From the NCBI RefSeq assembly GCF_046105845.1, contig NZ_CP151004.1: 64,000 nt of DNA; one strand, given 5' to 3'. The notes beneath the pieces were generated by a model. That model saw nothing but the letters and a program-made list of their open reading frames with translations. It was not told the DNA's origin and did no database searches. A program made the translations under genes and the position numbers. Source of the stretch: Escherichia coli. GTDB lineage: Bacteria; Pseudomonadota; Gammaproteobacteria; Enterobacterales; Enterobacteriaceae. Below are positions 26,504 to 51,119 of this stretch, one piece after another; the stretch's first letter is position 1, and every line of letters starts with the position of its first letter.

Positions 26504-26568
26504 CCCCTCACCCTAACCCTCTCCCCAGAGGAGCGAGAGGACCGATCGCGCTCAATGTTGCGATCGGT
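26504..26568. repeat. GC-rich intergenic repeat (CCCCTCACCCTAACCCTCTCCCC...) plus hairpin between tusA and zntA; same family as the ugpB-ugpA repeat
   Basis: Shares the 21-mer CCCTCACCCTAACCCTCTCCC and GACCGATCG with 44238-44280; adjacent ACCGATCGC-N10-GCGATCGGT hairpin likely terminates the convergent genes. Confidence 0.6.
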
Positions 26569-26573
26569 TTGCC

Positions 26574-28772: not shown

Positions 28773-28814
28773 GGCATCCTCCGGTTAAGTTTTTTCTCAT
28801 TAACCGAAGGATAC

Positions 28815-28836
28815 ACTCTGGAGTCGACTCCAGAGT
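28815..28836. promoter_or_regulatory. ZntR (MerR-family) operator palindrome in the zntA promoter
   Basis: Perfect 22-bp palindrome ACTCTGGAGTCGACTCCAGAGT between a TTGACT -35-like hexamer (reverse strand) and the zntA start. Confidence 0.75.
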
Positions 28837-50908: not shown

Positions 50909-50998
50909 GCGATCAGGAAGACCCTCGCGGAGAACCTGAAAGCACGACATTGCTCACATTGCTTCCAGTATTACTTAGCCAGCCGGGTGCTGGCTTTT
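50909..50998 (+). ncRNA. ryhB: Fur-regulated iron-sparing small RNA RyhB
   Basis: GCGATCAGGAAGACCCTCGCGGAGAACCTGAAAGCACGACATTGCTCACATTGCTTCCAGTATTACTTAGCCAGCCGGGTGCTGGCTTTT matches RyhB; ends in a GC hairpin plus U-tract; Fur-box-like AT-rich sequence immediately upstream. Confidence 0.92.
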
Positions 50999-51119
50999 TT
51001 TTGATCTTTCGTTTTCAATTTATCCACGGGAAGTGCTTGTGTTCGTTATGCGCACTCCAGTAGGAACCACGTCCGCTTTGCGCTAAGGTGTAAATAATCA
51101 CCTTAAAAAGGACGAAATC

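Follow-up and report, generated by a model that had tools for sequence, protein, structure and literature searches.

A perfect 22-bp palindrome in the zntA promoter of Escherichia coli matches the published ZntR operator

The zntA promoter PzntA of Escherichia coli K-12 (Brocklehurst et al. 1999; Outten et al. 1999) is the closest described system for the locus analyzed here, and the presence of a ZntR operator in this promoter is textbook knowledge. The published ZntR consensus, ACTCTGGAGTCGACTCCAGAGT, lies "within a 20 bp promoter spacer" (PMC1526738), and PMC3431237, citing Brocklehurst et al. 1999, gives PzntA a −35 hexamer TTGACT and a 20-bp spacer; the same paper describes DNase I protection by ZntR, as by MerR and CueR, over the −35, the spacer, and the −10. 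Direct measurements of PzntA showed that ZntR slightly represses the promoter when zinc is low and activates it ∼10-fold when zinc is high, and zntA is the only known ZntR target (PMC9189660). The latter study gives the PzntA spacer as 19 bp; this value reflects another choice of hexamers, and the pair TTGACT/TATCCT gives 20 bp. The DNA distortion mechanism is attributed to Outten et al. 1999, as cited in PMC9909328 and PMC1526738. PMC9909328 summarizes how the DNA is kinked and underwound and reports that ZntR activates transcription even with distantly related RNA polymerases, as would be expected if activation were independent of polymerase contacts. The zntR gene is usually located apart from zntA (PMC1526738). 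PMC8249747 was rejected as a source on ZntR because "ZntR" in that paper is a misprint for ZraR.

Several other metal-responsive promoters share parts of this layout. Like PzntA, the MerR-controlled PmerT promoters of Tn501 and Tn21 have a dyad operator in an over-long spacer, have the −35 hexamer TTGACT, and are activated by allosteric underwinding (PMC3431237); however, they differ from PzntA in having a 19-bp spacer, another palindrome, a divergent adjacent merR gene, and Hg(II) as the inducer. Similarly, PcopA of E. coli responds to a MerR-family metal sensor, CueR, that has its operator within the spacer, and the structures of the CueR-DNA complex and of the transcription activation complex are the mechanistic template. 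Unlike PzntA, PcopA has a 19-bp spacer and the operator ACCTTCCC-N5-TGGAAGGT and is induced by monovalent metals. The closest ZntR homologue with a solved DNA complex is CadR (PcadA, Pseudomonas; E = 1e-24). CadR and PbrR (PpbrA, Cupriavidus), like ZntR, are divalent-metal MerR regulators that control P-type ATPases, whereas PcadA and PpbrA differ from PzntA in having 19-bp spacers, imperfect dyads, and a regulator gene that is usually adjacent and divergent. The PDB copy that we searched contains no ZntR-DNA complex and, for ZntR, only a C-terminal fragment (1Q08 and related entries); by analogy to the CueR-DNA and CadR-DNA structures, we infer the geometry of the distortion that ZntR may impose on its operator.

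Here, we present an analysis of the zntA promoter in a 64,000-nucleotide stretch of E. coli DNA (the window). Over 8599-48240, the window is co-linear with the closest complete genome, that of E. coli SCU-172, but has only ∼96.4% identity to it over 34 kb, a value that is low for E. coli and suggests that the window comes from a divergent Escherichia lineage. The yhhJ-nikR stretch of SCU-172 (L201 1149-7436, corresponding to ∼9.7-16.0 kb in the window) carries hicAB and a GntR/PTS/kinase/aldolase cluster. Based on an end-to-end match to NCBIfam model NF033775 (P_type_ZntA; 1448 bits with a cut-off of 1240), the 732-aa open reading frame at 28772-26574 on the minus strand is zntA, which encodes a Zn/Cd/Pb-exporting P-type ATPase and is the gene under the promoter. 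Upstream and also on the minus strand is yhhN (29472-28846; Pfam YhhN, PF07947, E = 4e-47), the TGA stop codon of which (28848-28846) is separated by 6 bp from the −35 hexamer and by 9 bp from the palindrome. A 401-bp query around the site matched 5425 of the 5426 complete E. coli genomes, in which the features at this position are annotated as zntA and yhhN. At the end of the zntA transcript, a stem-loop with 12 pairs (26539-26570, minus strand) is located in the convergent zntA/tusA intergenic region. A tblastn search for zntR gave no match in the 64-kb window, and the window contains no ZntR-like open reading frame, which fits the published separation of zntR and zntA. In an Rfam scan of the window at gathering thresholds, nothing matched at the zntA locus, and the sole match was the RyhB small RNA gene at 50938-51002 on the plus strand (RF00057, 83 bits, full length).

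The first-pass annotation of this DNA had reported a perfect 22-bp palindrome at 28815-28836, and this was borne out. The sequence is exactly ACTCTGGAGTCGACTCCAGAGT, which has no strand, equals its own reverse complement, and consists of two 11-nt arms that are 100% complementary with a gap of 0 nt; the dyad center is between 28825 and 28826 in the central TCGA. A search of the window that tolerated three mismatches found no second copy, and its pattern was matched in 0 of 100 shuffles. The second-longest perfect palindrome in the 64 kb has only 14 bp. By itself, the length of the 22-bp palindrome is no more than moderately improbable: when the window was shuffled 200 times with its dinucleotides preserved, 5 of the shuffles contained a perfect palindrome of at least 22 bp, and 0.015 such palindromes are expected analytically per 64 kb, or ∼1 per 4-5 Mb genome. 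Because length alone is not overwhelming evidence, the case for function rests on the context of the palindrome.

On the minus strand, which reads cTTGACTCTGGAGTCGACTCCAGAGTGTATCCTtcggttaatgagaaaaaacttaaccGGAGGatgccATG through the promoter, we identified a −35 hexamer TTGACT (28839-28834) with five of six matches to the consensus, a spacer of 20 bp (CTGGAGTCGACTCCAGAGTG; 28833-28814), and a −10 hexamer TATCCT (28813-28808) with four of six matches. The spacer is 3 bp over the 17-bp sigma-70 optimum, in agreement with the earlier description of a long-spacer promoter. The same description placed the palindrome between the −35 and −10 regions; this is correct in that the palindrome fills the 20-bp spacer and ends 1 bp before the −10, but the palindrome is not strictly between the two hexamers, as its first 3 bp (ACT) are the last 3 bp of the −35. 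A generic sigma-70 promoter scan that only allows spacers of 16-18 bp found no promoter at the operator; since the 20-bp spacer lies outside this limit, the blank result is not evidence against the promoter.

Mapping of the transcription start site in K-12 agrees with this promoter. In the SMRT-Cappable-seq data (PMC6131387, Supplementary Data 1), 184 reads define a start at NC_000913.3:3606421 on the forward strand, and the transcript from this start ends at 3608685 and covers b3469 (zntA) only. In MG1655, zntA starts at 3606451, and from the −35 hexamer through the ATG, MG1655 and the window do not differ. The K-12 start corresponds to window position 28802 on the minus strand, or to 28801 if the table is 0-based, and this 1-nt uncertainty in the coordinate convention places the start 6-7 nt past TATCCT and makes the start nucleotide a T, or an A under 0-based coordinates. 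The start site was judged on K-12 data, and the K-12 sequence is identical here; the outcome that the first-pass annotation had named as refuting its reading, i.e., start-site mapping inconsistent with the promoter, did not occur. The transcript end at 3608685 corresponds to ∼26538, which is at the 3' foot of the 12-pair stem (26539-26570). The supplement of the Cappable-seq study (PMC4782308) has no entry near the zntA promoter locus. The 5' untranslated leader of zntA extends from 28800 to 28773 on the minus strand and, as read from the sequence, has the Shine-Dalgarno motif GGAGG at 28782-28778. In comparison with PzntA of K-12, we found no difference within the element (TTGACT, palindrome, 20-bp spacer, TATCCT, leader, and gene). 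Altogether, the locus has the features of a MerR-type long-spacer promoter: a dyad operator overlapping the spacer, a spacer in the 19-20 bp range, a start just past the −10, and a metal-efflux gene.

The palindrome ACTCTGGAGTCGACTCCAGAGT and the published ZntR consensus agree at 22 of 22 positions. This full agreement (PMC1526738), the 20-bp spacer, and ZntA encoded downstream support the initial assignment of the palindrome as a ZntR/MerR-type site in the zntA promoter, and the suggested comparison with published ZntR footprints points the same way, with the footprint across such promoters being cited in PMC3431237. We conclude that the 22-bp palindrome with its promoter is almost certainly the operator-promoter PzntA, which ZntR would bind and activate. 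For ZntR binding, metal dependence, and DNA distortion, we draw on the literature and on homologues and envision the following mechanism. A dimer of the MerR-family zinc sensor ZntR, presumably encoded elsewhere in the genome, would bind the palindrome. The 20-bp spacer would separate the hexamers too widely, and with the wrong phase, for the sigma-70 RNA polymerase, and because the hexamers are misplaced in this way, the promoter would be weak. While apo-ZntR would repress PzntA slightly, ZntR with Zn(II), Cd(II), or Pb(II) would kink and underwind the DNA at the dyad center and, in this way, realign the hexamers. Transcription would then start at 28802/28801 and yield a monocistronic zntA mRNA encoding the zinc-export ATPase.

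The operator and promoter are conserved within and beyond the species. Of 5425 E. coli genomes, 5397 have the 56 bp around the operator at 99% identity or more, and the copy number per genome has a median of 1 and a maximum of 2. More distant loci were found through the ZntA protein and are thereby unbiased toward the operator; most of those kept are distant P-type ATPases, and five among the matches listed are informative (L001-L005). In Citrobacter werkmanii (88% ZntA amino acid identity; TATCCT as the −10) and Enterobacter sp. (75% identity; CATACT), the −35 TTGACT and the spacer are identical to those in the window, while the flanking noncoding bases differ. In Photorhabdus (65% identity; TTGACT, spacer CTGGAGTAGGCTCCAAAGTG, TAGAGT), Vibrio (58% identity; TTGACC, spacer TTGGAGTAGGCTCCAAGGTT, TACACT), and probably Shewanella (57% identity; TTGACC, spacer TTAGACATTACTCCAAGGTT, TATAGT), the operator has diverged, while the hexamers are still 20 bp apart. 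In Vibrio, both half-sites are changed alike, to ACCTTGGAG, with the spacer still at 20 bp; such a symmetric change would be expected of a dimer-binding site. Across relatives, the −10 is at the same distance and reads TATGCT, CATACT, TACGCT, TAGGAT, TAAGAT, TAGAGT, or TACACT.

We also searched metagenomes for the exact 26-bp −35 and spacer, a pattern that fixes the −35 and the operator by design and, therefore, informs on downstream genes and leader variation only and not on operator conservation; in 118 of 120 such loci, a zntA orthologue is located downstream. In all of these loci, a −10-like hexamer of the TANNNT or CATACT type directly follows the 26 bp. Four of the metagenome loci (L101, L118, L132, and L145) have the same operator before zntA orthologues with a long His/Cys-rich N-terminal extension, a −10 reading TAGGAT or TAAGAT, and, just before the Shine-Dalgarno motif, a different, very stable leader hairpin (CAGTAACGGGCG...CGCCCGTTACTG).

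In two environmental contigs (L084 and L099), the identical 26-bp −35 and operator precede a merR-family gene. The soil contig of the two (L084 7707-9064; Ga0210401_10000220) encodes a MerR-family regulator with 34% identity to ZntR, followed by a weak, sub-threshold DUF2703-like open reading frame and then a MerT-like gene. L084 has the appearance of an autoregulated mer-like operon under the ZntR-type palindrome. The arrangement in L084 and L099 would represent an autoregulation that is not reported for zntR (PMC1526738).

Could the palindrome have a function other than that of a ZntR operator? At the RNA level, it could serve yhhN as an intrinsic, possibly bidirectional, terminator or as a 3'-end hairpin. 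Consistent with such a function, no other terminator is obvious between yhhN and zntA, the palindrome as RNA would fold into a stem of 9 bp closed by a 4-nt loop, and a simple terminator scan flagged the palindrome together with CAAGTTTTAT as terminator-like on the plus strand. However, the T-run belongs to the plus strand, and no plus-strand gene has its end there, while on the minus strand, on which yhhN is encoded, the hairpin is followed by GUAUCCUUCGGUUAAUG and not by a U-tract; an intrinsic terminator in the sense of a GC-rich hairpin with a U-tract at a gene end was, therefore, rejected. Moreover, the RNA fold around the palindrome is not unusual (z = −1.7 and −1.2), SMRT-Cappable-seq transcripts covering both b3468 and b3469 represent read-through from yhhN into zntA, and Term-seq reports no 3' end in the yhhN-zntA intergenic region but a region of Rho-dependent termination ∼195 nt inside zntA instead. 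We consider a role of the palindrome in terminating yhhN transcription very unlikely.

The promoter layout is common to all metal-sensing MerR promoters, raising the question of whether the site belongs to CueR or another paralogue rather than to ZntR, and L084, in which the identical 26 bp precede a mer-like operon with a regulator that is only 34% identical to ZntR, goes in the same direction. Against this, the CueR signal differs from the palindrome in its half-sites, which are separated by N5, and in its 19-bp spacer (PMC1526738), all 22 positions agree with the ZntR consensus, zntA is the downstream gene, and the ZntR-dependent regulation of PzntA was measured directly (PMC9189660), making another MerR-family regulator highly improbable. 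A symmetry without function, arising by chance or resembling a restriction site, has in its favor the roughly one perfect palindrome of this length expected in 4-5 Mb and the five shuffled windows that contained one. This idea is effectively refuted by conservation and the literature, and we assign it a negligible probability: the palindrome is identical in Escherichia, Citrobacter, and Enterobacter while the neighboring noncoding bases diverge, the Vibrio half-sites changed symmetrically, and the site is identical to one that has been characterized experimentally. Because it is placed exactly within the −35/−10 pair of the zntA promoter, upstream of a metal pump gene, is conserved across genera, and is identical to the published site, the palindrome is beyond chance. 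Thus, the ZntR operator remains our preferred reading, and the palindrome itself brings no new biology.

In addition to the operator, we identified an inverted repeat in the zntA leader region (28814-28774, minus strand). The left arm GTATCCTTCGGTTAA (28814-28800) contains the −10 hexamer and the start site, the right arm TTAACCGGAGGATGC (28788-28774) contains the Shine-Dalgarno motif, and the arms are complementary at 15 of 15 positions. As RNA, the hairpin has a folding energy of −21.3 kcal/mol (z = −5.2 compared with shuffles). Among 46 distinct enterobacterial leaders, 89.2% of the pair cells are standard pairs, compared with 27-57% when the partners are slid; five pairs have double changes, in particular U:A to G:C in nine sequences, and the covariation score was reached by 0 of 500 shuffles. 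RNAalifold supports only a 6-pair core of the hairpin. In the same 46 leaders, the loop varies in length and sequence, a pattern that argues for a hairpin over a protein-binding site. The PzntA start site lies within the left arm; RNAs initiated there therefore lack the anti-Shine-Dalgarno sequence, and the complete hairpin, with an occluded Shine-Dalgarno motif, would be confined to RNAs that read through from yhhN. RNAs that include the left arm have a median folding energy of −21.9 kcal/mol, compared with −6.8 kcal/mol for RNAs beginning at the start site. The predicted unpaired probability of the Shine-Dalgarno motif does not separate read-through from promoter-initiated transcripts, and the start of the open reading frame holds CUCC, which is able to pair weakly with GGAG; for the comparison of the two RNAs, only the difference in folding energy is informative. 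In K-12 without added zinc, a region of Rho-dependent termination is located at NC_000913.3:3606645 (Rho score 3.48, p = 7.9e-11), which is ∼195 nt inside zntA and corresponds to ∼28578 on the minus strand of the window.

A third operator half-site, GTCGACTCCTGA (28770-28759, minus strand), begins at the G of the zntA ATG and shares 11 of 12 positions with the operator half-site GTCGACTCCAGA. The corresponding 14-mer is kept with at most two mismatches in 52 of 85 distinct enterobacterial sequences, and the half-site, located at the first codons of zntA, contains the anti-Shine-Dalgarno-like CUCC.

We speculate that the hairpin may be a translational insulator and infer that it would keep the read-through RNA untranslated and exposed to Rho, such that this RNA would be cleared inside zntA and the synthesis of ZntA would strictly depend on initiation driven by ZntR; the third half-site might be part of the same device. 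We regard this model as tentative and rather doubtful. A leader hairpin that pairs the −10/start region with the Shine-Dalgarno motif of zntA is possibly new; a narrow literature check (zntA plus yhhN) did not retrieve a paper describing it.

PzntA and ZntR are a model for zinc sensing in the femtomolar range, for activation by DNA distortion, and for heavy-metal biosensors. In this context, our result is mainly confirmatory and illustrates that a textbook regulatory site can be recovered from raw sequence. If the insulator model is true, the −10/start region would double as the anti-Shine-Dalgarno arm and, in this way, couple the position of the transcription start site to the translatability of the transcript, and the leader hairpin would represent a compact insulation of a toxic-metal pump from upstream read-through.
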